This document shows positions 12,590-43,397 of a stretch of DNA of 64,000 nucleotides, piece after piece (the stretch's first letter is position 1; every line of letters starts with the position of its first letter). Position numbers and translations under genes: made by a program. The DNA is from Trypanosoma brucei. Its lineage: Eukaryota. Under the pieces are notes generated by a model that worked only from the letters and a program-made list of their open reading frames with translations, made no database searches and was not told the DNA's origin. The stretch covers positions 2,112,001 through 2,176,000 of the forward strand of contig CH464491.1 of NCBI GenBank assembly GCA_000002445.1. The letters are read 5' to 3'.

Positions 12590-15514
12590 TTACACTTCCA
12601 CTTGGGCCCCAACGATGCCTCCTGACTTTTTTGGACGGCCACGCCGCTTTGGCTCCGTATCCACGGGCGCGACATCTCCGTTAGCCTCATCGTTCGTGTC
12701 ACTTCGAATTTTCTCACGTGACGACTCGCTCTCCGCGGTAGCGTACCGCCTTCCCTTCAACACATTATGACTGTCCTTCTTTTCTCTTTTGGGGTGGGTC
12801 CGCCGTATCGCCACCTTTTTGGTGGATTCGACTTCCTCATTAGTTTCGGCATCGGGGATGAGCTGAGTGCCTTCGCCTGAAGCTTTACTGTCGGGAGTCG
12901 GATACCACACCTCCTCGTAAGTTTTAGGTGTGCTCTTCGTCCCCTTTGGGCCCTTCTTCCGCTTAGACACTTCATTCGTCGTTACGGATTGTCTCTTGGA
13001 AATTCCATCCACACTTCCACGGTGATGTTTCCCCTTCGCGCTCTGTTTTTTCTTCGATCCCCTTGGACGCGCCCGCCGCATGGGTTCCCCACCCGTCAAC
13101 CTCGGTTCCTCGGGTTTGCCCTCATCTGCGCTTCTCTGCACATCTTCGGTGCGCAACTTATCGGAACTCCGTCGATGGTGGTGCTTCTCCTTAGTTTTTG
13201 ATGTTTTTTTTGCTCCCTTGAAGTGTTCCCGCTGCCGTGACACATTTTTCAACACCGCCGGTTCCTCACTGGGTGTATCACCCGCGGCAAACTCAGCGCT
13301 CTTGTGTGAAGATTCGCCATCAGATGTGATGCGCCGCACCTCTTTATGAGGTGTTGAAGAGCCCCTGTTTTTTCTATGGCGAGTTCGCCGCTTATGTGCT
13401 TCGCGAGAGGACTCAGTTCTTGCTCCAGATGCGTCGCCAGTAGCTTCATTCGAGGTGCTTGGACGCGTGCCGGTCATAGCGAGTGGTTCAGTTGTGTCTG
13501 GAGTGGAGTAACTTGTGGACTGGAAGTAAACGCTGTCACCAAACGGAAACCGAAGCGAACTCTGCTGCAATTCATTGAGCCACTCAAATCGCGGCCATGT
13601 GCAGCTTGTACCAACGGCTGAGGAATTACACGAATCTTTCTGGTTGCTGTCCAAAACCTCCGCAGCAACACGGGAGTCGCAACTAGAGCTAAATAAAGGA
13701 TACATCTCACAGTACCACCGGTACAACTCCTCCGGCGTTGCAGCTGACTTCGGCAAGCAGAACCTGCGTGGCATCCGCGGTGCGTGGAGTTGGCCAAAGC
13801 AACTGTACGAAAGTTGGTCCTGCAGCGGCAATTCCTCAAAGGGCCGCGGCGGTGCCACCAAGAAGGAATTTCGCTGTGGGGACGCCAAGCACCACGAAGA
13901 CAAGCACAGTAATTCATTGTGTAGACTGCTGAGCCGCTGATACGTTACAGGTGGTGGCGTTATTGCTCTCACCTCGTCACGGGCAAAAAACAGCATCAGC
14001 AGCGCCCTTCGTGTCATAATGTCAACGTACACCTCTGCCTGCAGAGCCCCAAACCCACCACACACCGTACGATAAACATCCACAATTTCATCAATTCTCA
14101 TGTTCTGGAACAAATGCCAAAGTTGTGTAAGGTGGATATCCTCCAACTCTCCATTCATTGGGTTTATTACGTTTCTTTCCTCCCCCCGCCACCAACCTCC
14201 AGTGGCGGCCCTCCCCTTCTCCTGTTCCAATTCTTCTGTGGAAATCTCGCTACCACATGAATTGTGACATCCAGTTAACACCTCGCTAGGTTCAATCATG
14301 TTTATATAGAATGTATCCGTAAGATACCTCTGGTGGCGGGCATTGCAGTTCGTTCTCCTTTTACAGTCTGCGGGAAATCCTTCTTCTGATAGGTGCGTCG
14401 GATCTTTAGCCTTCCAGCCCTCTGGCCAGTTGAGCGATACGCCATCAACAACATTTTCTGTGAGTTCATTTTCACCCATTACACCCGCCATCACACTTTC
14501 CCTCGTGTCCTCCTGAAACTCTGTCTCGGTGAGTGTGATAATCATATCATGGCTACTAAATAGTGGACGTTTTGTGGATGGGGCAACCCGCATATTCCTA
14601 TAAAAAGCGACGAACATGTGCCACAGTTCTCTTGGGTCACCAGATGAGTTACTTCCATAGTGAAGAAACTCCCAAAGAACGCCCTGCAGACCGTAGCTGT
14701 AAAAACAACTACTGTCGGAGATTCTGCGAAGAGAGTTCCAAATCATGGCAGCGTCAAAGGCAACAACACCGTTGTGACAACACTCAACGACAGCCCTACT
14801 GCAACGGGAATGTACCCGGTTGGGCGTAAAGTTGTGATGCGTAACGGGATGTTTCTCCCCGTTACGAAAACCCACGTCAAGGAGATCCTTACTCTCCTGC
14901 ACCTCTGCGCCCCTTTTGAGAACGAGTTGCAATAGTTCGATCAACTCATCATGCCACATGGCCCTGTTGGAGACAAAACGCTCCAGCATGTTACGAAGAA
15001 TCCTGTGCTCACCAATTATATTGCGGTACTGTGGTGCTGTTTCACCCTCCTCCTGCACCTTTGATACCCAACCACTATCACGGAACAATTTCCTCACACA
15101 CCATTCGTCCAGTAACTCCACATTCCGCAGCCGTTCCTCGACGTCCAAGCACGTCACTACACCCGTGTTGTGATCCTTCAACGAAAACAACATTCGCTTT
15201 AGGTCCATCGACTCCCCAGACATCTCCTCTACTTGTGTTTGTGTGGAGGACGTCCCGTGCAAATCACACGTCATTCGAACGCTCTTCGAAGAAACGGTAG
15301 CGCCAACAGCACTGGAATGGACATCGCCGCAGCTGTCAGTTGTTTCTCCCGAATGCTGCGATAGGGTGCACATGCACGCACGCAATGGGTTTTGCAGGGC
15401 ACTGGAAGCTATCCCGCATCCACTGAAACCAGCAAGGGCTGTGCGGTGGTGACGGTGATGGCACCGCATTAAAAGGGGCGACAGCGGGTTGAGCCGCAGA
15501 AAAGAGTGCCACAT
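12590..15514 (-). CDS. Large hypothetical protein with a C-terminal basic tail carrying AT-hook-like motifs.
   Basis: The 974-aa ORF has a C-terminal third rich in K, R, S and E. It contains KRRGRPKK, which fits the AT-hook core RGRP flanked by basic residues, and RRARPRGSKKK. The N-terminal 600 aa are globular-looking and unassigned. Confidence 0.5.
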   Translation of the reverse strand: MWHSFLRLNPLSPLLMRCHHRHHRTALAGFSGCGIASSALQNPLRACMCTLSQHSGETTDSCGDVHSSAVGATVSSKSVRMTCDLHGTSSTQTQVEEMSGESMDLKRMLFSLKDHNTGVVTCLDVEERLRNVELLDEWCVRKLFRDSGWVSKVQEEGETAPQYRNIIGEHRILRNMLERFVSNRAMWHDELIELLQLVLKRGAEVQESKDLLDVGFRNGEKHPVTHHNFTPNRVHSRCSRAVVECCHNGVVAFDAAMIWNSLRRISDSSCFYSYGLQGVLWEFLHYGSNSSGDPRELWHMFVAFYRNMRVAPSTKRPLFSSHDMIITLTETEFQEDTRESVMAGVMGENELTENVVDGVSLNWPEGWKAKDPTHLSEEGFPADCKRRTNCNARHQRYLTDTFYINMIEPSEVLTGCHNSCGSEISTEELEQEKGRAATGGWWRGEERNVINPMNGELEDIHLTQLWHLFQNMRIDEIVDVYRTVCGGFGALQAEVYVDIMTRRALLMLFFARDEVRAITPPPVTYQRLSSLHNELLCLSSWCLASPQRNSFLVAPPRPFEELPLQDQLSYSCFGQLHAPRMPRRFCLPKSAATPEELYRWYCEMYPLFSSSCDSRVAAEVLDSNQKDSCNSSAVGTSCTWPRFEWLNELQQSSLRFPFGDSVYFQSTSYSTPDTTEPLAMTGTRPSTSNEATGDASGARTESSREAHKRRTRHRKNRGSSTPHKEVRRITSDGESSHKSAEFAAGDTPSEEPAVLKNVSRQREHFKGAKKTSKTKEKHHHRRSSDKLRTEDVQRSADEGKPEEPRLTGGEPMRRARPRGSKKKQSAKGKHHRGSVDGISKRQSVTTNEVSKRKKGPKGTKSTPKTYEEVWYPTPDSKASGEGTQLIPDAETNEEVESTKKVAIRRTHPKREKKDSHNVLKGRRYATAESESSREKIRSDTNDEANGDVAPVDTEPKRRGRPKKSGGIVGAQVEV

Positions 15515-18569: not shown

Positions 18570-19477
18570 GACAACAAGAAATTTCATTGCAACCATAAAA
18601 TAGTCGCGCCTTCTTCACCACAGTTGGTGACTTTACAACCCATAAAGGGCCCTTACCGCGGATGCCAGATTTCTGTTGCACAAGCTTCAGACCCGTCATG
18701 ATATCAAAACCAAATCCAAGAGCATGAGCAATTTCATGTGCCGTCACGCGCATACTACTATCATGAGAAGTCAGCACTTCAGGTCCAATATTGAAAACAC
18801 CAACAGTAGGGCGATGATCCCTATACCTCGAACACGGACCTGCCCATGCTGCAGGTGAACCCATTGGACCAGCGGCACCATATAACACCATATCAGCATC
18901 GGAGACACCTGTAGTGCGGTGCTCCTGAGGAATGTTGAAGTATTTGCAAAATGTGTATACTTCAGGAACCTTTATTGGGCCTTGAACTGGTTGTACCATA
19001 AGGCGGTCGCTGTGCATCTTCAATGCATCCGGTATAACAACAGACAGAAGAGATTTCTTTTCTCTGTCAGCACGGAATCAGTTGTGCATTGTAGTACATG
19101 CCCCTAAAAATAGAGCGAGTCTGACCTTCCCTTTCACAATATTTCTTCGGGTCGTCAATATCCGATTTAAAAACCTGAAATCGAATGGGTTGCCATCCTG
19201 CCGTTGAACTCGTAACAATCGCATGCACCAGATCTCCTTTAGGTACTCGAGGCTCACCCACCACTGGAAGGTCCCGCATACTCATGTTTTTCATCAACTT
19301 GCCGAAGTCACACCGATGTGGTGGGATATTGCCTTCAGTCACATCACCACATAATATCAAACCCAATAAAAAGGGAATGACATAACGAGGGAACATAATC
19401 ACTGTCATATATACACACTCAAGCGTATCAATAGATATTTGCAAATCCTTTAAATACAGTTTGGATACCACATTCAT
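18570..19477 (-). pseudogene. GP63: GP63/leishmanolysin pseudogene: the N-terminal two thirds only, with a frameshift and a 3' truncation.
   Basis: Two ORF fragments, 19067..19477 and 18514..19023, are each near-identical to the intact copies and include HEIAHALGFGFDIM. Relative to copy 3 there is a 1-nt deletion near 19045 (cttttctctgtcag here versus cttttcctttgtcag in copy 3). Homology to intact copies stops near 18570, after the FYGCNEI region. The downstream ORF tail (SCCQRDVIESLVKCCRPLIFI) is junk. Confidence 0.8.
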
Positions 19478-20441
19478 ATAATAAAAAGAAATAGAAACAG
19501 AAATGTAAAGACATAGGAAATAAATATATATATAATAACAACAATATATTATTTGATTACTATCATTGTGAATGATGATAAAGGTGTGAAAACTCCATGC
19601 TCAAGTAAAGAGGGTTAGGAAAATAATACAAAAAAAAGGATCATGAGTGTCCAATGAGAGCAGCGCATCACACACGTGGGAATGATTTCGCCTTATAACA
19701 AGAAACAAATGAAAGGTTCATGCACATTAAATGAAAGAAACCAGTGAGAACACAGCACATGAAGGAATTACGTACATCAAAAGAAAAGCAAAGTACAAAG
19801 GAAAAAGAAAAAGATATATTCTTCAGATATGACAGTTACCGCTGTCGCAAGAGGAAAAAAAAGAAGAAAAAATAAAACAGAAGAATTGAACAAAGACATA
19901 ATATTCATTGATGAAAATTTATGATATGAAACATTAAACTGCTCTATCTACATCAAGCAGGAAACCATTTGATATTCCACACACATAAATTATTGTGATG
20001 TGCGCAACCGAAATGGAAAGATACGGAAGACAGTGCTGATATACATCAATACCGTCACCTCCAGGCAAAACAGTACCCAAAACATTATGTAGGTTTTCCA
20101 TTATTCATTTCAATATATCCACACAATTTCCAATTTAAGAGCAATAAAACAAACATTCAATATTTATGTATATATATATATATATATATGCTATCACTTT
20201 ACACTGGAACAGCAACAAGTGTCGTGTGATGTTGTCGTCAAAGAGATATGACGTGATAAATGACAGCGGTTCCCCATTCATAAAACAGCATGTTTGTACA
20301 TCATGTGAAAGAAAGAAAGATTGGTTAGTAATTCAACTGTTAATAAAGCACACCAAAACTCTCAACAAATGCCTGTGAAATCCAGCTAAGAAAGGCATCA
20401 TAAAGTAATTGCAGTAACAGTGCCGCTTACGCATAATATTA
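19478..20441. repeat. GP63 array inter-copy spacer unit, repeated at 23580..24485 and 26290..27218.
   Basis: The three spacers share long near-identical blocks by eye, for example aataacaacaatatattatttgattactatcatt, gggaatgatttcgccttataacaagaaacaaatgaaaggt and aaagcacaccaaaactctcaacaaatgcctgtgaaat. Each contains a short (TA)n. Confidence 0.85.
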
Positions 20442-22307
20442 TTATAGGGAAAAAGAAACGAAGAGTAGCATATTCCACATAAAATAACTTGAATGTACAG
20501 CCCATGATGCTGCACCTGTCCCGTGCTCTGTCTCTTCAGAATCCACTGGGGAAGGCGCTTCGGAAGATTCTTCTGAAGATTCTTCGGAAGATTCTGCAGA
20601 AGATCCTTCAGAAGATCCTTCGGAAGATCCTTCGGAGGATCCTTCGGAAGATCCTTCAGAAGATCCTTCGGATGCCACCGCCGAAGGGACGGTGACCCGC
20701 TTCAACACCTTCGAGGCACACAACTCAGACTTTTTAGGACACCGAACATAACCGCTGGAGAATGTCACATTAGATGTCACATTTCTTCCCTCGGGGCAAT
20801 CATACCATTGGTCGTCATCAACAAAACGCACCTGAAGAGTATCTGGTTCACAATTCACCTCAACACAAATATCAGCAATTGCAACTATAACGTTCTTCAG
20901 CTTGAGACCCGTAGCTTTCACACACCGTGAGTTAGGTCCAATGCGACTTCCCCACATTGCATGCGGATGACCATCAGTGCAGCCGGTATTGGAGAAGAGA
21001 CGTATGTAAGGGCAGAAATCAAGCAGTTCATTGGGGCCACCCTTATTGACACGAGAAAAGTACCGATATTGCTGGGGTATTGGAGTCCTGTATAAATAAA
21101 TGGCACATGATCCCAACCCACCCCTGTCGGCGGTACAAACATTTTCACCCTTCTTTGTCGCAGATGTACAAAACACATCAGGAAAGTTGCTCTTTCCACT
21201 CTCTATACGTGTGTGTTGCAGAAAATCACAGCCTCGTCCTTTACCAAAATGCATATCTTCTTCAGTTCCCCATCTGGCTTTGTAAAAACCCATATCCTCA
21301 AATAATGCCATAGTTAGCACACTATAACGGCCTCCATCGCTGCCTTTTATACCAGCCATCATCTCTTCCATTGCGATCCTACGCTCCCAATGCGATCTAA
21401 CCGTACCCCTGCCACCTTCATCCTCCAGTTCCACACCCGTGATATCATTGCAACCATAAAATTCCTGCGCTTTCTTTACCACAGTTTGTGACTTTACAAC
21501 CCATACAGGGCCCTTACCGCGGATGCCAGATTTGGATGCCACAAGCTTCCGCTCATTCATAATATCAAAACCAAATCCAAGAGCATGAGCAATTTCATGT
21601 GCCGTCACACGCATACTACTATCATGAGAAGTCAGCACTTCAGGTCCAATATTGAAAACACCAACAACAGGGCGTCCATCCCTCAACTTCGCACACGGAA
21701 CAGCCCATGCTGCAGGTGAACCCATTGGACCAGCGGCACCATATAACACCATATCAGCATCGGAGACACCTGTAGTGCGGTGTTCCCTGGGAATGTTAAA
21801 GTTTTTGCAAAACGATTGCTCCCTATGGACCGTGATTCGTCCCTTTACTGGTTGTACCATGAGGCGATCGCTGTGCATCTTCAGTGCATCTGGTATCACA
21901 GCATCCAAAAGAGATTTCTTCTGCGATGTCAGCAAGGATTCAGTTTTGCATTTGTAGTAGATGCCCCTAAAATTAGAGCGAGTTTCACCCACATTTCCAC
22001 AATATTTCTTCGGGTCCTCAATATCCGATTTAAAAACCTTAAATCGAATGGGTTGCCATCCTGCCATTGAACTCGTAACAATCGCATGCACCAGATCTCC
22101 TTTAGGTACTGGAGGCTCATCCACCACTGGAAGGTCCCGCATACTCATGTTTTTCATCAACTTGCCGAAGTCACACCGATGTGGTGGGATATTGCCTTCA
22201 GTCACATCACCACATAATATCAAACCCAATAAACAGGGAATGACATAACGAGGGAACATAATCACTGTCATATATACACACTCAAGCGTATCAATAGATA
22301 TTTGCAA
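20442..22307 (-). CDS. GP63: GP63/leishmanolysin (major surface protease, M8 zinc metalloprotease), copy 2, intact.
   Basis: The 621-aa ORF has the HEIAHALGFGFD zinc-binding HExxH motif, the conserved Cys pattern and a signal peptide (MFPRYVIPCLLGLILCG). It has a C-terminal (SEGSS)n tail and then a hydrophobic GPI-signal-like end (WNMLLFVSFSL). The ORF may start at a later Met; MQISIDTLECVYM precedes the signal peptide. Confidence 0.9.
   Translation of the reverse strand: MQISIDTLECVYMTVIMFPRYVIPCLLGLILCGDVTEGNIPPHRCDFGKLMKNMSMRDLPVVDEPPVPKGDLVHAIVTSSMAGWQPIRFKVFKSDIEDPKKYCGNVGETRSNFRGIYYKCKTESLLTSQKKSLLDAVIPDALKMHSDRLMVQPVKGRITVHREQSFCKNFNIPREHRTTGVSDADMVLYGAAGPMGSPAAWAVPCAKLRDGRPVVGVFNIGPEVLTSHDSSMRVTAHEIAHALGFGFDIMNERKLVASKSGIRGKGPVWVVKSQTVVKKAQEFYGCNDITGVELEDEGGRGTVRSHWERRIAMEEMMAGIKGSDGGRYSVLTMALFEDMGFYKARWGTEEDMHFGKGRGCDFLQHTRIESGKSNFPDVFCTSATKKGENVCTADRGGLGSCAIYLYRTPIPQQYRYFSRVNKGGPNELLDFCPYIRLFSNTGCTDGHPHAMWGSRIGPNSRCVKATGLKLKNVIVAIADICVEVNCEPDTLQVRFVDDDQWYDCPEGRNVTSNVTFSSGYVRCPKKSELCASKVLKRVTVPSAVASEGSSEGSSEGSSEGSSEGSSEGSSAESSEESSEESSEAPSPVDSEETEHGTGAASWAVHSSYFMWNMLLFVSFSL
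20563..20685 (-). repeat. A 15-bp tandem repeat inside GP63 copy 2 encoding (SEGSS)n.
   Basis: About 8 units of ggaagatccttc(a/g)ga with minor variants are seen directly on the + strand. They translate on the minus strand as SEGSSEGSSEGSS...AESSEESSEESSE. Confidence 0.9.
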
Positions 22308-23000
22308 TTCCTTAACTTACAGGATAGAAACTACATACATAGAATAAGAAAAGGAAATAGAAATAGGAATGCAAAGCCATAGGAAGATATGTAAGGTCAG
22401 AGTTAGAAATGTAACAACACACAAAATATTAATTTGTGTGTTACTGATAATGCAACCGAAGTTGTACTCAAGCATGAAAAAATAGGCATAATACTGCACA
22501 GTAACCGCATCTCAAAATACAGCACATGCGTGTGTATAGGATATATAACCTGCTGTCGCATCAGTACGCAATGGTGTCAATCAAACAATACTATCAGAGG
22601 TATCGGAGTGATTGCGGTTGTTGAACATCACGCACAACAGACATAGTTACCACATATTGTAAAAGGGAAGGAATCAACAAGGGAAAAGGAGAGGAATATG
22701 GGAAAGGGAAAGGGAAGGAAATGAATGTTGTCAGACAGGGATAACTGTTAGCAGTCGTTACTCGTCAATGTTAAATCAGAAGAGGTGTCAGGTAAACGTG
22801 TCTTCTCATCATAAGGTACAAGATTTCATTATGCGAGCACTTCCATAGAGACCTCTCTGTAACTCATGGTTGGGACTCGATAATCCAAAAATAACAACAA
22901 ACACAGATGTATCGCTACAAGTTAACTCTCTCTTAAAGGATATATTTATATATTATTACTAATTTTAGTATACCATACAGTATGATAACTAAATAAACAT
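22308..23000. repeat. GP63 5'-flank unit, repeated at 29118..29810.
   Basis: The two blocks are near-identical over about 690 bp, from the GP63 start codon outward. Identity ends abruptly after ...gataactaaataaa(a)cata (22981..23001 and about 29802..29822). Confidence 0.85.
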
Positions 23001-23336
23001 AGTTTCTGTAGAGAAAGTATAGGACGCATAACCATCCGTTACAGGATCCCACAACCCCCTGGAGGCAATTCTTATTCCCTGATTTACGGCCTCAGTGACG
23101 GTGGCATGAGTAACAAATTTATAACGCTCATATCCCAGGCGCACAACACGCTGCTGAATCTCACTACATATTTCTTTTATTAGTGGTTGTACATCCTCAT
23201 GCACATACGCCCGATCCCCAACGAGTGTTTGGCACACCTTTTTCAAAATGGGCTCAACGGCACTCGCTCGGAATTTAGTTCCGGGACGCGGCAGCTTAAT
23301 GGCAGGGCGCGGGGCTTCATCGTACTCGTTCACCAT
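22989..23336 (-). CDS. DYNLT: Tctex1-family dynein light chain; the C-terminus appears short relative to the family.
   Basis: The 115-aa ORF aligns to human DYNLT1 over its C-terminal half. YKFVTHATVTEAVNQGIRIASRGLWDPVTDGYASYTFSTETMFI matches [45 protein letters not shown]. Our protein stops about 9 aa before the usual end (...IVSAFGLSI). Confidence 0.7.
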   Translation of the reverse strand: MVNEYDEAPRPAIKLPRPGTKFRASAVEPILKKVCQTLVGDRAYVHEDVQPLIKEICSEIQQRVVRLGYERYKFVTHATVTEAVNQGIRIASRGLWDPVTDGYASYTFSTETMFI

Positions 23337-24485
23337 CAGCTACGTTTGACTTCCACTTCTTTCCTCTTCTTCTTTTCTCTTGTTTTGTCCCGGGTGCTCG
23401 TGTGGATACGCGTAGACGCCTTTCTTATTTCTTCCTAAAGGCAAACAAATTGGTTAATATTCTAAACGATCACGAGCACAGATCAGTAAACACCTACACG
23501 AGGAGTATACTTCGATTTTAGAAACGAACAGAAAAGCAAAAGCAATGGCAAAAAAGAATACCAAACGAAGAAATGGAACATCATATGAATATATATAATA
23601 ACAACAATATATTATTTGATTACTATCATTACGTTAGGTAAAAGATTTATGCACTCCATGCTCAAGTAAAAGAGGGTTAGGAAAATAATACAAAAAAAGG
23701 ATCATGAGAGTCCAATGAGAGCAGCGCATCACACACGTGGGAATGATTTCGCCTTATAACAAGAAACAAATGAAAGGTTCATGCACATTATATGAAAGAA
23801 ACCAGTGAGAACACAACACACCAAGAAATTACGTACATGAAAAGAAAAACAAAGTAGAAAGATAGAAGAAAGAGATATTATTCAGATATGGCTGTAACCA
23901 CTGTCGCAAGGGGAAAATAAGAGAAGAAAAAATATAAGAAAACTATTCAACAAAGACATAATATAGGCTGATAAAATTTATGATATGAAAGGTTAAGCTG
24001 CTCTATCTACATCAAGCAGACACCCATTTGATATTCCACACACATAAATTGTAGTAACGTGCGCAACCGAAATGGAAAGATACGGAAGACAGTGCTGCTG
24101 TATACAATACCGTCACCACAAGGCAAAGCAGTAACAGAAATACATTTTTCCAGCTATTCTTTCTCTCGTTTCAGCGTATCCACACAATTTCCAATTTAAG
24201 AACAAGAAAACAAACATCCAATATATATATATATATGTTATCACTTTACACTGCAACAGCAACAAGTGTCGTGTGATGTTGTCGTAAAAGAGATATGATT
24301 TGATAAACGACACCAGCTCCCCATTCATGAAACAGCGTGTTTGTACATCATATGAAAGAAGGAAAGATTGCTTAGTAATTCAAGTGTTAATAAAGCACAT
24401 CAAAACTCTCAACAAATGCCTGTGAAATTCAGTAAAGAAAGGTATCATAAAGTAATTGCAGTAAGAGTGCCGCTTATGCATCATA

Positions 24486-26207
24486 TTATAATAGGGAAAA
24501 GCAAGAAACGAAGAGTAGCATATTCCACATTAAATAACATGAATATGCTGACCATGATGACGCGCCCTTTCCTTGTCCCTTTTGTGCCGAAGTGGTTTGC
24601 TTTACCACCTTTGAAGCACACAACTCAGACTTTTTAGGACACTGAATAGAACCGCTGGAGAATGTCACATTAGATGTCACATTTCTTCCCTCAGGGCAAT
24701 TATGCCATTGGTCGTCACCAACAAAACGCACCTGAAGAATATCTGGCTTACAATTCACTTCAACACAAATATCAGCCATTGCAACTATAACGTTTTTCAG
24801 CTTTAGACCCGTAGCTTTGACACACCGCGAGTTAGGTCCAATACGACTTCCCCACATTGTCTTCGGATCTCCATTAGTGCAGCCGGTATTCGAGAAGACA
24901 CGTATGTAAGGGCAGTAATCAAGCAGTTCACCGGGACCACCCCTGTTGCTCTGAGAAAAGTACTGGTAATGCGTAGGTAGTGAGGACTTATAAGTAGAAA
25001 TTGCACACGACCCCAGCCCAGTACGGTCAGATGTACAAATATTCTCACCTTGCTTTGTTTCCGACGTACAAAACACATCAGGAAAGTTGCTCTTTCCATC
25101 CTCTACACACCTCTTTTCCAGAAAATCACAGCCTCGTCCTTTACCAAAATGCATATCCTCTTCAGTTCCCCATTTGGCTTTGTAAAAACCCATATCCTCA
25201 AATAATGCCATAGTTAGCACACTATAACGGCCTCCATCGCTGCTTTTCAAACCAGCCATCATCTCTTCCATTGCGATCCTACGCTCCCAATGTGATTTTA
25301 CAGTTCCCTCACCACCTTCATCCTCCAGCTCCATACCTGTCAACGTATCACAACCATAAAATAGTCGCGCTTTCTTCACCACAGTTTGTGACTTTACAAC
25401 CCATACACCATTCTTACCACGGATCTCATTCCTCTTTTCCACAAGCTTCAGCTCCTCCATGATATCAAAACCAAATCCAAGAGCATGAGCAATTTCATGT
25501 GCCGTCACACGCATACTACTATCATGAGAAGTCAGCACTTCAGGTCCAATATTGAAAACACCAACAACAGGGCGCTTTCCCTTGAGCCTCGAACACGGAC
25601 CTGCCCATGCTGCAGGTGAACCCATTGGACCAGCGGCACCATATAACACCATATCAGCACCGGAAACACCTGTAGTGTAGTGATCCTGAGGAATATTGAA
25701 ATTATTGCAAAACGACTGCAGTTTAGGAACCTTAATTGGGCCCTGAACTGGTTGTACCATGAGGCGATCAGTGTGCATCTTCAGTGCATCCGGTATAACA
25801 ACAGACAGAAGAGATTTCTTTTCCTTTGTCAGCAAGGAATCAGTATTACACTGATAATTGGTACCCCTAAAGTTAGAGCGAGTTTCACCCACACTTCCAC
25901 AATATTTACTCCGATCCTCAATATCCGATTTAAAAACCTTAAATCGAATGGGTTGCCATCCTGCCGTTGAACTCGTAACAATCGCATGCACCAGATCTCC
26001 TTTAGGTACTGGAGGCTCACCCACCACTGGAAGGTCCCGCATACTCATGTTTTTCATCAACTTGCCGAAGTCACACCGATGCGGTGGGATATTGCCTTCA
26101 GTCACATCACCACATAATATCAAACCCAATAAAAAGGGAATGATATAACGAGGGAACATAATCACTGTCATATATACACACTGAAGCGTATCAATAGGTA
26201 TTTGCAA
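24486..26207 (-). CDS. GP63: GP63/leishmanolysin, copy 3, intact, with the shortest C-terminal tail.
   Basis: The 573-aa ORF has HEIAHALGFGFDIM and the same architecture as the other copies. It lacks an SEGSS tail and ends ...TTSAQKGQGKGASSWSAYSCYLMWNMLLFVSCFSLL. Confidence 0.9.
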   Translation of the reverse strand: MQIPIDTLQCVYMTVIMFPRYIIPFLLGLILCGDVTEGNIPPHRCDFGKLMKNMSMRDLPVVGEPPVPKGDLVHAIVTSSTAGWQPIRFKVFKSDIEDRSKYCGSVGETRSNFRGTNYQCNTDSLLTKEKKSLLSVVIPDALKMHTDRLMVQPVQGPIKVPKLQSFCNNFNIPQDHYTTGVSGADMVLYGAAGPMGSPAAWAGPCSRLKGKRPVVGVFNIGPEVLTSHDSSMRVTAHEIAHALGFGFDIMEELKLVEKRNEIRGKNGVWVVKSQTVVKKARLFYGCDTLTGMELEDEGGEGTVKSHWERRIAMEEMMAGLKSSDGGRYSVLTMALFEDMGFYKAKWGTEEDMHFGKGRGCDFLEKRCVEDGKSNFPDVFCTSETKQGENICTSDRTGLGSCAISTYKSSLPTHYQYFSQSNRGGPGELLDYCPYIRVFSNTGCTNGDPKTMWGSRIGPNSRCVKATGLKLKNVIVAMADICVEVNCKPDILQVRFVGDDQWHNCPEGRNVTSNVTFSSGSIQCPKKSELCASKVVKQTTSAQKGQGKGASSWSAYSCYLMWNMLLFVSCFSLL

Positions 26208-27218
26208 ATCCTTAACTTATAGGACAGAAACTACATACATAGAATAAGAAAAGGAAATAGAAATAGGAATGCAAAGCCATAGGAAACATATATATATATA
26301 TATATATAATAACAACAATATATTATTTGATTACTATCATTACGTTAGGTAAAAGATTTATGCACACCATGCTCAAGTAAAAGAGAGTTAGGACAATAAA
26401 ACAAAAAAAGTGGATCATGAGGGTCCAATGGGAGCAGCGCATCACACACGTGGGAATGATTTCGCCTTATAACAAGAAACAAATGAAAGGTACATGCACA
26501 TTATATGAAAGAAACCAGTGAGAATACAGCACATGAAGGAATTACATACATGAAAAGAAAAGCAAAAACAAAGTAGAAAGAGATAGCAAACAAGGAGATG
26601 TTCTTCAGATATAGATATTACACTGCACCAACGAAGAAAAAGAAAGAAGGCAAAAAAATAAAACAGAAGAATTGAACAAAGAAGAGAATATTGATTGGTA
26701 AAGATTATGATATGAAAGGTTAAGCTGCTCTATCTATATCAAGCAGACAACCATTTGATATTCCACACACATAAATTATAGTAACGTGCGCAACCGAAAC
26801 GGAAAGAGACAGAAAAACAATGTTGCTGTATAACAATACCGTCACCACAAGGCAAAGCAGTAACAGAAATACATTTTTCCAGCTATTCTTTCTCTTGTTT
26901 CAGTATCCCCGAACAATTTCCAATTTAAGAGCAAGAAAACAAACATCCAATATATTTATTTATATATATGTTATCACTTTACACTCCAACAGCAACAAGT
27001 GTCGTGTGATGTTGTCGTAAAAGAGATATGATGTGATAAACGACACTGGCTCCCCATTCATAAAACAGCATGTTTGTACACCATGTGAAAGAAGGAAAGA
27101 TTGCTTAGTAATTCAAGTGTTAATAAAGCACATCAAAACTCTCAACAAATGCCTGTGAAATTCAGTTAAGAAAGGTATCATAAAGTAATTGCACTAACAG
27201 CGCCGTATATGCATCATA

Positions 27219-29117
27219 TTATAATAGGGAAAAGCAAGAAACGAAGAGTAGCATATTCCACATTAAATAACTTGAATATGCTGACCATGATGATGTACCC
27301 GTCAACTGTCGCGTCATTGGGGAGGACCCCTCGGAATCCTCATGGGAAGACTCTTCAGAATATTCTTCGGAAAAATCTTCAGAAGCCCCCGTAGAAGACG
27401 TCGGAGATGCCCCTTCATAAGTTTCTGCGAAAGGCGCTGCGAAAGGTCCTGTTGAAGGCCCTGGAGAGGTAACTGGGAAGGCAACTGCGGAGGGGACTGT
27501 GATCCGCCTCAGAATCTTCGAGGCACACAACTCAGACTTTTCAGGACACTGAATAGAACCGCTGGAGAATGTCACATTAGATGTCACATTTCTTCCCTCA
27601 GGGCAATCATACCAACGGTTATCACCAACAAAACGCACCTGAAGAATATCTGACTCACAATTCACTTCAACACATATATCTGCAAGAGGAACACCTTTTT
27701 TTTTTTGAAGTCTAAGCCGAGTTCCTTTGACACACCGTGAGTTAGGTCCAACACGACTTCCCAGCATTACGTTCGGATTTCCATCAGTGCAACCGGTATT
27801 CGAAAAGAGGCGTATGTAAGGGCAGTAATCAAGCAGTTCAGCGGGACCACCTTTCTTTTCGTCAGCAAAATATCGATATTGCTCAGGTATTGGAGACTCA
27901 TGTGTCTGAATGGCACATGACCCCAACCCACCACGATCAGATGTACAAAAGATCTCAGTGTCCCTGGCCTTTGACGTACAAAACACATCAGGAAAGTTGC
28001 TCCTTCCATTCTCTACACACCTCTTTTCCAGAAAATCGCAGCCTCGTCCTTTACCAAAATGCATATCTTCTTCATTTCCCCATTTGGCTCTATAAAAACC
28101 CATATCCTCAAATAATGCCATAGTTAGCACACTATAACGGCCTCCATCGCTGCTTTTCAAACCAGTCATCATCTCTTCCATTGCAATCCTACGCTCCCAA
28201 TGTGAGTTTTTCGTACCGTCACCACCTTCGTCCTCCAGCTCCACACCCTTAATTTCATTACAACCATAAAATTCCTGCGCCTTCTTTACCACAGTTGGTG
28301 ATGTCACAACCCATACATCATTCTTACCACGGATGCCAGATTTCTTTTCCACAAGCTTCAGTTCCTCCATGATATCAAAACCAAATCCAAGAGCATGAGC
28401 AATTTCATGTGCCGTCACACGCATACTACTATCATGAGAGGTCAGCACTTCAGGTCCAATATTGAAAACACCAACAGTAGGGCGTTGACCACTTACCCTC
28501 GAACACGGACCTGCCCATGCTGCAGGTGAACCCATTGGACCAGCGGCACCATATAACACCATATCAGCACCGGAGACACCTGTAGTGTAGTGGTCTCTGG
28601 GAATGCTGAAGTTATTGCAAAATGTTTGTTTTTCATAAACCTTAATTGGGTCGTGAACTGGTTGTACCATGAGACGATCAGTGTGCATCTTCAATGCATC
28701 CGGTATAACAACAGCCAGAAGAGCTTTCTTTTCCTTTGTCAGCACAGAAGCAGTTGTACACTCGTAGTATGCGTCCCTGAAGTTAGAGCGAACTTGGCCT
28801 TCCTTTTCGCAATATTTGTTCCGGTTTTTAATGTCAAAGTCAAACACCTGAACTCGGATGGGATGCCATCCTGCCGTTGAACTCGTAGCAATCGCATGCA
28901 CCAGATCTCCTTTAGGTACTGGAGGTTCATCCACCACTGGAGGTTCCCGCACACTCATGTTTTTCATCAACTTACCGAAGTCACACCGATGCGGTGGGAT
29001 ATTGCCTTCACTCACATCACCACATAATATCAAACCCAATAAAAAGGGAATGATATAACGAGGGAACATAATCACTGCCATATATACACACTCAAGCGTA
29101 TCAATAGATATTTGCAA
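27219..29117 (-). CDS. GP63: GP63/leishmanolysin, copy 4, intact, with a distinct Ser/Pro/Glu-rich C-terminal tail.
   Basis: The 632-aa ORF has HEIAHALGFGFDIM. Its unique tail is ...PSAVAFPVTSPGPSTGPFAAPFAETYEGASPTSSTGASEDFSEEYSEESSHEDSEGSS, followed by a GPI-signal-like end. There is a T11 homopolymer at 27696..27706 on the + strand (A11 on the coding strand), encoding KKK at a point where the other copies read NVIV. Confidence 0.9.
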   Translation of the reverse strand: MQISIDTLECVYMAVIMFPRYIIPFLLGLILCGDVSEGNIPPHRCDFGKLMKNMSVREPPVVDEPPVPKGDLVHAIATSSTAGWHPIRVQVFDFDIKNRNKYCEKEGQVRSNFRDAYYECTTASVLTKEKKALLAVVIPDALKMHTDRLMVQPVHDPIKVYEKQTFCNNFSIPRDHYTTGVSGADMVLYGAAGPMGSPAAWAGPCSRVSGQRPTVGVFNIGPEVLTSHDSSMRVTAHEIAHALGFGFDIMEELKLVEKKSGIRGKNDVWVVTSPTVVKKAQEFYGCNEIKGVELEDEGGDGTKNSHWERRIAMEEMMTGLKSSDGGRYSVLTMALFEDMGFYRAKWGNEEDMHFGKGRGCDFLEKRCVENGRSNFPDVFCTSKARDTEIFCTSDRGGLGSCAIQTHESPIPEQYRYFADEKKGGPAELLDYCPYIRLFSNTGCTDGNPNVMLGSRVGPNSRCVKGTRLRLQKKKGVPLADICVEVNCESDILQVRFVGDNRWYDCPEGRNVTSNVTFSSGSIQCPEKSELCASKILRRITVPSAVAFPVTSPGPSTGPFAAPFAETYEGASPTSSTGASEDFSEEYSEESSHEDSEGSSPMTRQLTGTSSWSAYSSYLMWNMLLFVSCFSLL

Positions 29118-38399: not shown

Positions 38400-41300
38400 T
38401 TTTTGTTTTTTGTTTGTTTGTTGCTTGTGTTGTTTTGTTTTGTTTTTGCTTCCTAGTAAAAAAACTTCCACACGCACAAGTTATTCCACCCTTTTGGACC
38501 TCTGTTCCTTTTCTTTTTGTCTATGGATATGTTAATATGTATGGCCTTCAAAGGGGTCTTATGAAAGCAAAATAATAATAATAATAATGTTGCCTAAAAC
38601 CTTGAGTTTCCTTCCTTTTTCCCTTAATTAATAATGTTTGCACTAATAACGCAGTAGGGAAGCTGAAGGGGTGTGCAATTGAGAAGATTGAGGGTAAAAG
38701 AGAAAAAGAGAAAAAGAAATATAATAACCCCGCGCATAAGCGTGAAGGACAAAGTGACTGGAAGGGAGAAGGAAAATAAAGAAAAGGAGTGTGAAAAGAG
38801 GGGAAATAAGAGGGGGGGGAGGAAATGAGAGGAACCGTTAAATAGAAGATAGTGAAAGAACGTAAAAATTATTAGTATAAATAATAAAAAGAAACGTAAA
38901 TTTATTAAATGCTCTTCGTGGTGGGTGAAAGGCTACCATCATGCTCAGGGATCATGAAGAAAAGAAGCAGAGGGATTATTTTTTTTTTTTGCGGCATACG
39001 TGTGTTTGTGTTTTTTTTCGGAATGTGGGGAAGTGGCGGGAATTTGTTGTTTTTTTTTTTTTAAAAAAAAGAAAAAGAAAAACAGAAAGAGGAATGAAGC
39101 GCGTTGGAGGGGGGGGGGGGTGGCGGGCACAAGTGGTAATGAACAGCTACATCCCCACAGTTCAATAAACTCGTTTAATGTTGAACGGAGAATAATGAAT
39201 GGTAAAAACAGACAGACAAACAACAACGAAAAATAGAAGAAAAAGACGGAACAAAAATGAATATCGAAGCCCATGGCTTATCTCCACAATACGCAAATAT
39301 ATAAATATATAAATATATTTACATGTATTTATTGACTCCCTCCCCACACACACCTTCCTCCGTACCTCTGTACGCAAAGAAAAGAAAAAAAAAGAAAAAA
39401 TGCGAATGACCGCAGCCATCCACAACTCAAGTGAATGACGAAACAAACGAAAAATAATTCCTCCACTGGGGTTTGCCACCACTCGCAACCCGCTAGTCTC
39501 CCAACCACAATAAATGGAAACAATAGTAAGTGCAATGAGTAGAAAAAACAAAAAAACAAAAAAACAAAAAACAAAAAACAAAAAACATACGAATTGCAAT
39601 TTTAAAAAAAAACGACCAAAAAAGCGGGTAAAACAGGGGAGGATGGAAAGAAAGAGTTTAAGTGCCTCCTGCACTCCTTTTGTTCATTTATTTCCTTTTG
39701 GTTTTTTTTTCGTTTATTCAACGGTACAAACCGAAATATCTGTGTATTATTAGTTACTTTTTGTTCTCCTAAACCTACACTCTCAAACCAAGCAAACAAA
39801 CACAAACACAAGCACACACATACGTACATGAATTAATAACAATAACAATAATAATAGCACTCTGTTTTGTCGTGCATATTATATGTATGATGTATAACAT
39901 ATTTTCTCAAACAAAACAAAACAAAACACTTCAAGCAGTATCCTAAGCGCAAATTTTTTTTTAAAAAACGCCCGTAAAACCGAAAAAAAAACAAAGGGGA
40001 AGAGGAAGGGGGTGGGTGAATACCACCGGCATTGCCAGGTTGAATCAGTACCTCAAGCAACAGTTTGTGATGTATTAATTCAAATATTCGTGCGTGAAGC
40101 GTATAATTGAGTTTCTGGACACGCAAGCGGTGGGAATATGCAACACAAAAGAAAAAAAAGAAAGAAAAAAAAGAAAAAAGTGGTGTGGCATATAACGCAG
40201 TGAAACGGTACAGCAAAAACAGAAGGAATCGCATGAGGCATTCAACAAAAGTAGAAAAGGAAACAAAAGAATGAAACGAATTATTCGCCAACGCGAGTTT
40301 GAGTAAAAGGAAGAGATAATAACAAGTGGTTAACAGCTCGCCTCCCCTCCTCCTATACATACATAAACACATGTGCCTTTCCCCCAAAAAAAACCTTCTC
40401 AAAAAAGTAAGAAACGAAAAAAAAAAGTAAGAAGAAAAAAAAAACACCGAAAACGAGTGAGGAACAAAAAAAAACATCAAAGTAAATTTTAAAAAAAAAG
40501 AAAAGAAAAAAGAAAAAAGAGAAGACAAGCGGAACTCCAAAAGGTCCATTATTTCTCCTCCTCCGTCCCACCGGAACGCACCATTTGCAACAACAACAAC
40601 CAAAAAAAAAAGAAAAAAAATGAAACAAATAATGAGCCGCTCTCATGCAAGAGATAAAAAAAGGAGACGGGGGAGGTCGTATAAACAAGAGTTCGAAAAG
40701 AAACTAAAACGAACAAAAAGAAAAAAAGAAAACAAAAGAAGATATATGCGGTTATTAACAACTTGTCCCGCAGTACGTCCCGCAATATTTCAACATTTGG
40801 CCCCAGTTTGGATAATTTCATCAGACAATTTCATCACCGAACTCCTCATGACTAAATTGACCCAATGCAATTCTCATTATTATTTTATTATTTTGCTCTT
40901 TGTTGTTTCTTTTTTTTTTTGTCGACTTTCTTCACAACCTCAAAACTGTGAAATTCAAAGTGATCACTGTTGTTTGTTTTTCTTTGTTTATTGTACCCAT
41001 GTGAGAAGTACCAAATAAAGCAATGAAAGCAACAACCCCAGCAATAATAGTAATTAGTAATGAGAAAAACAGGAGAGATAATAAAAGAACTTTGAAAAAA
41101 AAAAAGAAAGAGAGAAATAAATACAACAAACAAAACACAACATCAATAAGAAGTAACAATAAATATAATAATTATAATAATTATAATTATGGTAATAATG
41201 ATGATAACAACAACAACAACAACAAATGGCCTAAAGGATGTATCACAGAGCTAACAACTTCCATGCCCCATCCAGAAAAAACTTCCAACTTTGGGCCACA

Positions 41301-41969
41301 TAATGCAAAAGAAGTGACGTAAGAGGTGAGAAGAAAAGAAGGATTTAAAAAGAAAAAAAAGTAAAAAAGAAGTAAAAAAGGATTACGGCAAACAACAACG
41401 ATGAAACCATTGGCCACCTTTTCAAAGTAAGTTTTATTGTTTTCATTTTTTTTTTCATTTTTTTAATTTTTTTTTTTTAAATCTTTCTTTTCTTCTCACC
41501 TCCTTCTTTGGCATACCCCCTGCCGCGGACTGTCACCTTTGCAGAAACTGGCAAGGTACTCGTCCTTTTAAAAAAAAAAAAACAATAAAAGATCAAAAAG
41601 AAAATTTTCGACTTTATCGAACTCTTTTACATGCACCATCAGCTGTGCTTCATTCTATCATTAAATATTTTTCTTTCTTTTGTTCTTTAAATATTACTCG
41701 AACACGTCAATAATTCCCAACAACTGCAATTGAGCCTCACAATACGCCTTGCCTCCTGTTACCGACACCGATGCGACACAACAAAGCCACATGTATATAT
41801 ATATATGTATATATATGTATATATATGACTACAAATACGAACACAGAATTTTTTTTCAGAAATCAGAGTAAAAACGTAAAAAGAAAAAAAAAGATGTTAG
41901 TAAATAAGGTTTCCCCCATCACTATTAGACGCGCCCTTATATTATACATAATTTCTTCCTAAACACACA

Positions 41970-42007
<38 letters not shown>

Positions 42008-43362
42008 TATATTATTATATATATATATTGCCTTATCCCGCCACTAAATAATAATCCATTAATCCACTAACCGACCCCGCATTAATGTCAAGACGATTTC
42101 TTCCCTCATTATTTTTCGTTCATTATTTTTTTTTAAATAATTTGCATATTCTTTCGTTTCTCTTCTTTTAAAAAAAAAAAAAATACTTTAATCATCCCTT
42201 AAAATACGGACAGTCGCGCAAAGCGGATAATGACAGTAACAACAACAACTACTACTACGTAAACGCCAGTATAATTTGCTTTTCAACTTTTTTTTTTTTT
42301 TACATCTGTACCGCAGTAATTGACACCAAAAAAAAAAAAGGTACACACGCAATAATGTGGGGGGGGGGAGAAAAAAAAAAACAGAAAGTTGTCAAAACGG
42401 TAAAAAAAAAAAAATGATGGGCGTCGCCCGCTCCTCCTCCTCCTCCTCTTCCACCTCCTTTTCACACACATCAGCAAATGTAAAGGCAACCGCAAATGGT
42501 AATTTTTCACACATATACACACAAAAAACAATAAATATTGTTGTTATTATTATTATTATTATTAGTTTTCTTTTCTTTAAAAAAAAAAAACATTTGCCGC
42601 AACGTACATACAGGAAAACATATGTGCGGAAAAAAGTAAGGAGGAGGAAATGGTGGGACCAAAATAAAGAAAAAACAAAAAAAAGAGAACAACAACAACA
42701 ATAATAATAATAATAATAACAGTGTTAATAGTAAGATATTATGAACTACATTAATAACGACAATAATAATAATAATAGTAATAATAATTTTAATAGTGAC
42801 TTACAAGGGGGGAAAAAAAAAACCACGGCGCGCACAGACACACAAACACATAAAAACATACACGTGTATGTGTGTATGCCTTCCCTGCTCTATTATTATT
42901 CTTTTTTTTTTTGTAAAATAATTAATTATATATTTTGTTATCATTAATTTGTTTTCTTTTCTTTGTTTCAATATATTTATTTTTCATTCCCTTTTGTTTG
43001 TCCGTTTTGTCAAAAATGCGGGACCCGTATATTTACATCTTTTGTTCCCACACATTCTTTCTTTCCTTCTTTTTTTCCTGCCCCCCCCCACCTCCCCTCA
43101 ACTGTAATGTAACTCACATCACATCACACATTACATGCGCTCAAACTTCACCTGGTCAAAAAAAAAAAAATGATGATAAAATGGGAGACAAACGTAAGAA
43201 CAACAACAAGAAGAAATAAAGTGAAATAAAAAGAAAAGAAAACATCCCGTCAATTTTCCATTTTATTCAACTGCTTGTGCATTTGATCTTATTTCTTTTT
43301 CTTTTCTCCCTCTTTTTCTCTCTTGTCATTATTATTTCTTCACTTCCCCTCTCCATTCCTCC

Positions 43363-43397
<35 letters not shown>

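Follow-up and report, generated by a model that had tools for sequence, protein, structure and literature searches.

What are the copy-specific C-terminal tails of the TbMSP-A surface proteases of Trypanosoma brucei: unrelated sequences joined to a shared enzyme, or variants of a single element? The question arises in a 64-kb stretch of chromosome 11 of T. brucei brucei TREU927 (the window), which carries the TbMSP-A ("Gp63-1") array with all of its genes on the minus strand. An earlier note on this DNA had recognized GP63 paralogs and quoted their tail peptides, and both hold: the window contains three full-length Peptidase_M8 genes (copies 2, 3 and 4), and the quoted peptides are present in them. 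We take the tail to start after ...LCASK and to stop before the conserved S-W, the first residues of the hydrophobic end of the protein. On the evidence below we consider it likely that the copy-specific tails are three states, amplified, decayed and deleted, of one coding minisatellite that forms a stalk before a glycosylphosphatidylinositol (GPI)-type signal. The proposed 12-nucleotide unit would encode S-[E/A/P]-[G/E/V]-[S/P/T/A] and would lie between the last disulfide-bonded element of the M8 domain (...CPKKSELCASK) and the conserved GPI-type signal (G-T-G-x-S-(S)-W..., then 14-15 hydrophobic residues).

The amplified state is seen in copy 2. We tested periodicity by comparing self-identity at a given lag with 5000 codon shuffles. 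At lag 12 the tail of copy 2 has a self-identity of 0.667 versus 0.337 ± 0.039 for the shuffles, none of which reaches the observed value, while at lag 15 the figure is 0.31. Tandem Repeats Finder (TRF) also returns a period of 12 for the near-perfect run at 20558-20672 (9.6 copies, score 167). The repeat had been described as a 15-bp unit encoding (SEGSS)~8; its period is instead 12, and in this register the tail reads VLKR VTVP SAVA, six SEGS units, and then SAES SEES SEES SEAP SPVD SEET EHGT GAA. The six SEGS units differ from one another at synonymous third positions only, in agreement with the earlier suggestion that repeat slippage is at work.

Copy 4 is the decayed state. Its tail had been called non-repetitive, a description that does not survive the same test: self-identity at lag 12 is 0.545 versus 0.285 ± 0.031, again with none of the 5000 shuffles reaching it, and TRF reports a match of period 24 at 27320-27384. 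In register the tail is ILRR ITVP SAVA FPVT SPGP STGP FAAP FAET YEGA SPTS STGA SEDF SEEY SEES SHED SEGS SPMT RQLT GTS, which we read as about 15 units that would be old and decayed.

The tails of copies 2 and 4 share one frame throughout their nucleotide alignment, and the gaps are all multiples of 3, mostly of 12. Over 63 codons they are 54% identical in amino acids and 62% in nucleotides, so that the claim that the tails differ completely has to be given up for this pair. Because the alignment stays in frame and the 12-nucleotide periodicity is strong, the copy 4 tail is best seen as a decayed version of the array of copy 2, which answers in the affirmative the question, raised in the earlier note, of whether it is a degenerated repeat. 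The same note had named a way in which the tails might turn out not to be distinct at all, namely that they are frameshift artefacts, one nucleotide sequence read in different frames. The alignment scores 122 in frame versus 15-24 when the frame is shifted, and stop codons turn up in each of the alternative readings; together with the gap lengths, this leaves the frameshift explanation with a negligible probability.

The perfect SEGS run of copy 2 suggests a recent local amplification of one unit, the decayed state being the older. We read the run as recent since its units differ only synonymously and match the SEGS unit found at the equivalent position in T. b. gambiense at 12 of 12 bases. 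In copy 3, nucleotide alignment shows that the linker at the start (VVKQTT) is kept along with one or two units at the end (SAQK GQGK GAS, corresponding to SEET EHGT GAA), and the remainder is one large in-frame gap with BLAST breakpoints at 24599/24609 and 24559/24560. Such in-register remnants favour deletion, which is the probable origin of this short tail; almost the entire array would then have been lost in frame. Slippage or unequal exchange could account both for the SEGS run of copy 2 and for the probable deletion in copy 3. The length of 30-90 residues originally given for the tails fits copies 2 and 4, with 67 and 75 residues, but not copy 3, with 17.

The same pattern extends across the T. 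brucei group. We compared nine MSP-A sequences from TREU927, T. b. rhodesiense, T. b. gambiense DAL972 and two T. equiperdum strains. No two of these tails are alike, yet all nine hold one tetrapeptide register from the first residue after CASK. Tail lengths range from 17-20 residues (copy 3 and P0004) to 74-75 residues in steps of approximately whole units, so that the number of units in the common register runs from 0-2 up to about 15 among paralogues and subspecies. Pooling 105 units yields the consensus S(75%)-[E 37%/A 28%/P 18%]-[G 44%/E 22%/V 20%]-[S/P/T/A], in which the Ser of position 1 is far more retained than the residues of the other positions, whose entropy is higher. Landmark units (VTVA, SAVA, SPVT, SEES, SPED/SPVD and xxGT) follow one another in constant order across the genes, including those of T. 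b. rhodesiense, T. b. gambiense and T. equiperdum. Composition varies around this framework: copy 2 and T. equiperdum have Ser/Glu-rich tails, and T. b. rhodesiense and P0005 have Pro/Ala/Ser/Gly-rich ones. The 12-nucleotide periodicity is present in the DNA of the other subspecies as well (0.479 vs 0.289 for T. equiperdum and 0.510 vs 0.306 for T. b. gambiense; none of 5000 shuffles comes up to the observed value in either). Judged from these alignments, the array varies by gain and loss of whole 12-nucleotide units and by point substitution, with frame and register kept in every copy examined.

Outside the group we see no such array. The closest homologues in T. congolense and T. vivax have short, non-repetitive tails. 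The alignment with Leishmania leishmanolysin (1LML) stops at the equivalent Cys motif, 8 residues before the end of the chain, which argues that Leishmania GP63 has no comparable stalk. Since none of the T. congolense, T. vivax and Leishmania homologues examined carries it, the array appears to be an addition specific to the T. brucei group.

Could the SEGS run of copy 2, or its number of units, have been mis-assembled or collapsed? The protein encoded by copy 2 has no exact match in the public protein collection, which does include those of copies 3 and 4 from this strain, and no independent contig carrying copy 2 could therefore be recovered. MSP-A arrays are, moreover, hard to assemble: that of T. 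b. gambiense DAL972 has a gap of 100 Ns directly after its single copy, and the T. equiperdum OVI sequence has a gap of 10 Ns inside the tail. Against this, the run is just 115 bp long and its units can be told apart by their synonymous differences, and independent assemblies show runs of the same unit at the equivalent place (SEGS SAGS SEGS in T. b. gambiense, SEGS SEGS SEGH SEGF SEGT in T. equiperdum OVI and SEGG SEGS SEGS in T. equiperdum L001). We therefore regard an assembly artefact as very unlikely. When the C-terminal 144 residues of copy 2 were searched against proteins for repeat-number variants of other strains, a single match (P0056) came back, low-complexity words having swamped the candidates; P0056 comes from a 1.7-kb contig with a gap of 10 Ns inside the tail and serves as a qualitative example only.

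The tails sit on a core that is far from uniform. We defined the core as 20709-22196, 24609-26096 and 27516-29006, that is, codons 26-521 in copies 2 and 3 and 26-522 in copy 4, and compared 496 codons. Pairwise identity is 76-82% in amino acids and 83-87% in nucleotides, with a nonsynonymous rate (dN) of 0.11-0.15, a synonymous rate (dS) of 0.28-0.37 and a dN/dS ratio of about 0.40; the catalytic cores had been called almost identical, which these values contradict. In windows of 20 codons, blocks of 93-100% nucleotide identity, third positions included, are found in the signal peptide and the GPI signal and, between these, in the active-site block, around residues 300-340 and over the last 40 core codons. 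The core patches that intervene are 62-77% identical, several of them nearly as diverged as the tail, and their third positions have diverged too. Between copies dS is close to 0 in the signal-peptide codons (the first 25) and in the GPI-signal codons (20445-20507, 24489-24557 and 27222-27290), and the adjacent untranslated regions (UTRs) are 86-90% identical. Homogenization thus concerns the flanks, both ends of the coding sequence (signal peptide and GPI signal) and some blocks in between, and not the entire core.

The genes carry a recombination signal. Among the nine proteins, the nearest relative changes every 30-60 residues along each gene; residues 375-405 of copy 4, for instance, are 93-97% identical to P0007 and P0008 versus 40-53% to the other members. 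Genes of other strains share the divergent cassettes in varying combinations. A four-gamete test applied to the T. equiperdum gene together with copies 2, 3 and 4 is failed by 67% of the pairs of informative sites, neighbouring sites being less incompatible than distant ones (p=0.0005). By these comparisons the core is a recombinant mosaic in which invariant blocks alternate with divergent cassettes, resembling the fragmental conversion of Leishmania GP63. The tail is the most divergent segment of all, with copies 2 and 4 only 62% identical in nucleotides there versus 83% in the core, and its flanks are conserved, with 90-97% identity over the last 40 core codons before it and 88-98% over the codons of the GPI signal after it. 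That divergence is concentrated in the tail, as had been proposed, is accordingly correct as far as the tail and its conserved flanks go, while the homogenized core set against it has to be replaced by a mosaic with divergent cassettes of its own. Given this mosaic and the conserved flanks on both sides, the tail can be viewed as the most extreme of several variable cassettes and the sole one that varies in length.

The mosaic also bears on the notion that the tails are unrelated and independently acquired, on a core held near-identical by gene conversion. The segments adjoining the tail are indeed 90-99% identical in nucleotides, as this notion would have it. However, copies 2 and 4 have homologous tails that share one register, and the core reaches only 76-82% amino acid identity with patches down to 62% in nucleotides, so we hold independent acquisition to be highly improbable.

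The body of the protein belongs to the Peptidase M8 (GP63) family. Copy 2 matches the Pfam profile Peptidase_M8 (PF01457) with E=2.1e-126 over residues 66-521 (profile positions 57-526 of 529) and leishmanolysin 1LML with E=1.7e-77; the Pfam match ends at residue 521. It is 72-80% identical to every other T. brucei-group MSP-A protein versus 53% to T. congolense. The HExxH motif, the third His and the Met-turn (H225, E226, H229, H294 and M305 in copy 2 numbering) are invariant in an alignment of 38 sequences, and HEIAHALGF is found in copies 2-4 as well as in a truncated copy at the edge of the array.

In contrast to the body, the tail is predicted to have no fold. In an AlphaFold2 model of copy 2 built on the 38-sequence alignment, the predicted local distance difference test (pLDDT) score lies at 85-97 over residues 68-520; it drops to ~30 over residues 521-593, where no secondary structure is modelled, and a helix follows at 589-608. 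The model points to an intrinsically disordered, hydrophilic and usually acidic stalk, and the description of the tails as Ser/Glu-rich spacers of low complexity, placed between a folded protease and an end that resembles a GPI signal, is upheld. At the other end of the protein the N-terminus is hydrophobic (MTVIMFPRYVIPCLLGLILCG), with a modelled helix at residues 10-19.

The extreme C-terminus follows a common layout. All nine family members have the pattern G-[AT]-[AS] and SW[AS].[HY]S.Y (a polar spacer of ~8 residues) followed by 13-15 hydrophobic residues at the very end, as judged by a rule of thumb; in copy 2 the last 14 residues have a mean Kyte-Doolittle value of 1.46. TbMSP-A is presumably GPI-anchored, as this layout fits a predicted GPI addition signal, in keeping with what has been published. 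With the omega site at the conserved Gly, no part of the array would be removed on maturation, and it would join the enzyme directly to the anchor. After GPI addition, then, the disordered stalk would tether the protease body straight to the anchor; copies 2 and 4 would have 50-58 more residues between body and anchor than copy 3 or Leishmania GP63, with net charges of -14 and -8 versus +3. A longer tether could raise the reach of the catalytic domain within or above the surface coat of bloodstream forms.

Does the stalk do anything beyond providing length? It may simply be a neutral linker, an unconstrained spacer in which differences of length, charge and sequence are by-products of slippage and drift, with only some hydrophilic residues needed before the GPI signal. 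Paralogues with next to no array are kept as intact open reading frames (copy 3, and P0004 with two units), the homologues of T. congolense, T. vivax and Leishmania work without one, composition drifts from Ser/Glu-rich to Pro/Ala/Ser/Gly-rich between genes, and dS in the tail is saturated. On the other hand, Ser occupies position 1 in 75% of the 105 units, even in the most decayed arrays, frame and register are intact in all nine tails, and no tail contains a stop codon or a frameshift. The retained Ser hints at constraint or modification, but a shared origin is equally possible, and recent common origin could likewise explain the intact register and reading frames. We rate the neutral linker as a serious contender, falling a little short of an even chance.

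The earlier note had put the tails forward as candidate O-glycosylated or phosphorylated spacers that set the distance of the protease from the membrane. The periodic Ser of the TbMSP-A unit (75%, often as S-x-E, a spacing seen in SSEG units) might be modified by phosphate or by an O-linked sugar, and the length and charge of the stalk might place the protease at different depths in the variant surface glycoprotein (VSG) coat, giving each copy different substrates. This functional proposal we consider unlikely; if true, it would be an innovation of the T. brucei group, which the closest homologues examined in T. congolense, T. vivax and Leishmania lack, and might provide a handle on the function of MSP-A. 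A different source of variation would be diversifying immune selection, in which the tail, as an exposed and immunodominant repeat, would act as a decoy or variable epitope and be pushed to diverge between copies and strains. All 10 tails seen do differ, expression in bloodstream forms has been reported (PMC2034397, PMC4413820) and repeat antigens are, as a matter of general knowledge, common in parasites. However, dN/dS in the tail is ~0.3 and not >1, although this estimate is unreliable, a membrane-proximal stalk beneath a dense VSG coat should be poorly accessible to antibodies, and no serological data were found; selection of this kind appears improbable.

Several points weigh against the reading of the tails as three states of one minisatellite stalk. 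The short tail of copy 3 could be a secondary deletion or the ancestral state, since the outgroups are short-tailed and the mosaic blocks a reliable gene tree. Run on a shorter region of five sequences, the recombination test did not reach significance (p=0.076). The comparison of core and tail by dN/dS, suggested in the earlier note, gave a usable value for the core only (about 0.4): the tail value of ~0.32 is unreliable and uninformative, with dS saturated at 1.2 and the repeat alignment ambiguous, and for these reasons selection and drift are not separable in the tail. Finally, copy 2 may not be fully functional. Its residue 355 is Arg (CGT, 21207-21209, minus strand), where 37 of the 38 aligned trypanosomatid GP63 proteins have Cys and copies 3 and 4 have TGT; the conserved Cys columns are all present in copies 3 and 4. 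The substitution removes a family-invariant Cys and therefore leaves one disulfide partner unpaired, and if copy 2 is indeed impaired, a functional reading of its amplified stalk would be weakened.

The genes are known ones. TbMSP-A was reportedly described by El-Sayed and Donelson in 1997 and by LaCount et al. in 2003. Those of the window are themselves TbMSP-A, whose Ser/Glu-rich extension has already been described: in the part of PMC6963732 that summarises LaCount et al. 2003, TbMSP-A has an extended Ser/Glu-rich C-terminal region and a short hydrophobic end taken as a GPI signal, unlike MSP-B and MSP-C. Copies 2 and 4 have both the extension and the hydrophobic end; copy 3 has the hydrophobic end, and its 17-residue tail is not Ser/Glu-rich. 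Expression of MSP-A in bloodstream forms, with a rise towards stumpy forms, has been reported, whereas no function is reported to be known (PMC7895675). As for experiments on the GPI anchor, those of PMC2034397 concern TbMSP-B alone, and the tandem-array study of Jackson (2007) covers the MSP-B array of chromosome 8 only. The 12-nucleotide or tetrapeptide register, the homology of all tails, the variation in unit number (17-75 residues) and the Cys355Arg change of copy 2 were not found in the accessible literature, though the primary TbMSP-A papers might note copy-to-copy differences between tails; a literature search on MSP-A gene identifiers and on surface-proteome, GPI or phosphorylation evidence found nothing usable.

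In mechanism, the closest analogues are the procyclin repeats and the Ser/Thr-rich stalks of other GPI-anchored proteins. The repeat number of procyclins varies between gene copies, and GPEET procyclin is phosphorylated. Low-complexity, Ser/Thr-rich repeats of variable number, evolving by slippage, lie between the functional domain and the GPI anchor of fungal adhesins and T. cruzi mucins; the TbMSP-A units differ from these in being much shorter (4 residues) and Glu-rich. Heavy O-glycosylation is known for those stalks, and no sign of it was obtained for TbMSP-A. Procyclins resemble the TbMSP-A tail in carrying acidic, repetitive, unstructured repeats directly before the GPI site (PMC8591177 for EP repeats and GPI anchoring). 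However, the procyclin repeat makes up approximately the whole mature protein and belongs to the insect-stage coat, whereas that of TbMSP-A is a tether on a 450-residue enzyme of bloodstream forms, and the units themselves, EP or GPEET versus S-x-x-x, are unrelated. In Leishmania, the tandem GP63 paralogues of chromosome 10 are told apart mainly by their 3' UTRs and C-terminal ends, and the variation in their core, which falls on the surface of the protein, has been ascribed to recombination within genes or to fragmental gene conversion (PMC6367770). The mosaic core is shared with TbMSP-A, but the C-terminal classes of Leishmania differ by type of anchor (a GPI site, a transmembrane-like end or none) and not by a repeat stalk of variable number.

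The feature is real and beyond chance, yet it is a known property of a known gene family: what is added is minor descriptive detail, and current understanding is not overturned. If the minisatellite reading is right, one variable tetrapeptide stalk, as opposed to a set of unrelated sequences, would lend itself to simple experiments such as stalk swaps and deletions, and the tails could serve as copy-specific epitopes or as length markers in the polymerase chain reaction to distinguish paralogues and strains. The evolutionary picture is corrected as well, to a recombining mosaic like Leishmania GP63 in place of a homogenized array with a free-running tail.

The features of the locus are collected in the table below.

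Features of the TbMSP-A locus, with positions in the window (CDS, coding sequence; aa, amino acids; nt, nucleotides)
Feature	Position	Strand	Description
TbMSP-A copy 2 CDS	20442..22271	-	609 aa from first ATG; Pfam Peptidase_M8
TbMSP-A copy 3 CDS	24486..26171	-	561 aa; exact match to XP_828850.1 / EAN79738.1
TbMSP-A copy 4 CDS	27219..29081	-	620 aa; exact match to XP_828851.1 / EAN79739.1
Copy 2 tail	20508..20708	-	67 aa, net charge -14
Copy 3 tail	24558..24608	-	17 aa, net charge +3; VVKQ TT / SAQK GQGK GAS
Copy 4 tail	27291..27515	-	75 aa, net charge -8; decayed 12-nt array
Copy 2 GPI-signal-like end	20445..20507	-	SWAVHSSYFMWNMLLFVSFSL; G-A-A just upstream, candidate omega, omega+1 and omega+2
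Copy 4 GPI-signal-like end	27222..27290	-	SWSAYSSYLMWNMLLFVSCFSLL; 98.6% nt identical to the copy 3 segment
Truncated, frameshifted TbMSP-A copy (implied "copy 1")	18580..19522	-	Self-BLAST, tblastn; residues 1-277, no tail
Tctex-1 family (dynein light chain) gene	22989..23336	-	Pfam PF03645, E=1e-24; splits the array between copies 3 and 2

By exact look-up, XP_828850.1 and XP_828851.1 are annotated as 'Gp63-1 surface protease homolog' of T. brucei brucei TREU927, and the closest relatives in other subspecies are named 'major surface protease-A'; because of these exact matches and names we identify the locus as the TbMSP-A array of chromosome 11. Full MSP-A copies number three here, one in T. 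equiperdum L001 and one, followed by the gap, in T. b. gambiense DAL972. Three further UniRef proteins of strain 927/4 GUTat10.1 (P0004, P0005 and P0007) are distinct TbMSP-A proteins, 70-85% identical to copies 2-4, and are encoded nowhere in the window, which suggests a very different second haplotype or unassembled copies.

The truncated copy forms the downstream edge of the array. It keeps HExxH and lacks the third His and the Met-turn. In TREU927 it is split between two tblastn high-scoring segment pairs in different frames, and in T. equiperdum and T. b. gambiense it is in a single frame with an identical truncation point (L001 14091-14903; L002 11587-12417); it looks like an old array-edge relic common to the subspecies. 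Self-BLAST also reveals a higher-order duplication of 4.5 kb with 86% identity (29820-25351 versus 23001-18590), which takes in an upstream spacer, a gene, a spacer and the 5' part of the next gene. Since it spans more than one gene, the array appears to have grown by two-gene units and not only by single-gene units. In T. equiperdum L001 the Tctex-1 gene (13019-13366) comes after the one full MSP-A copy. The minus strand carries every long open reading frame of the window, and within this otherwise single minus-strand gene cluster the region at ~39500-45500 has few genes, a GC content of 32-38% and dense A/T-rich low-complexity sequence and short tandem repeats.

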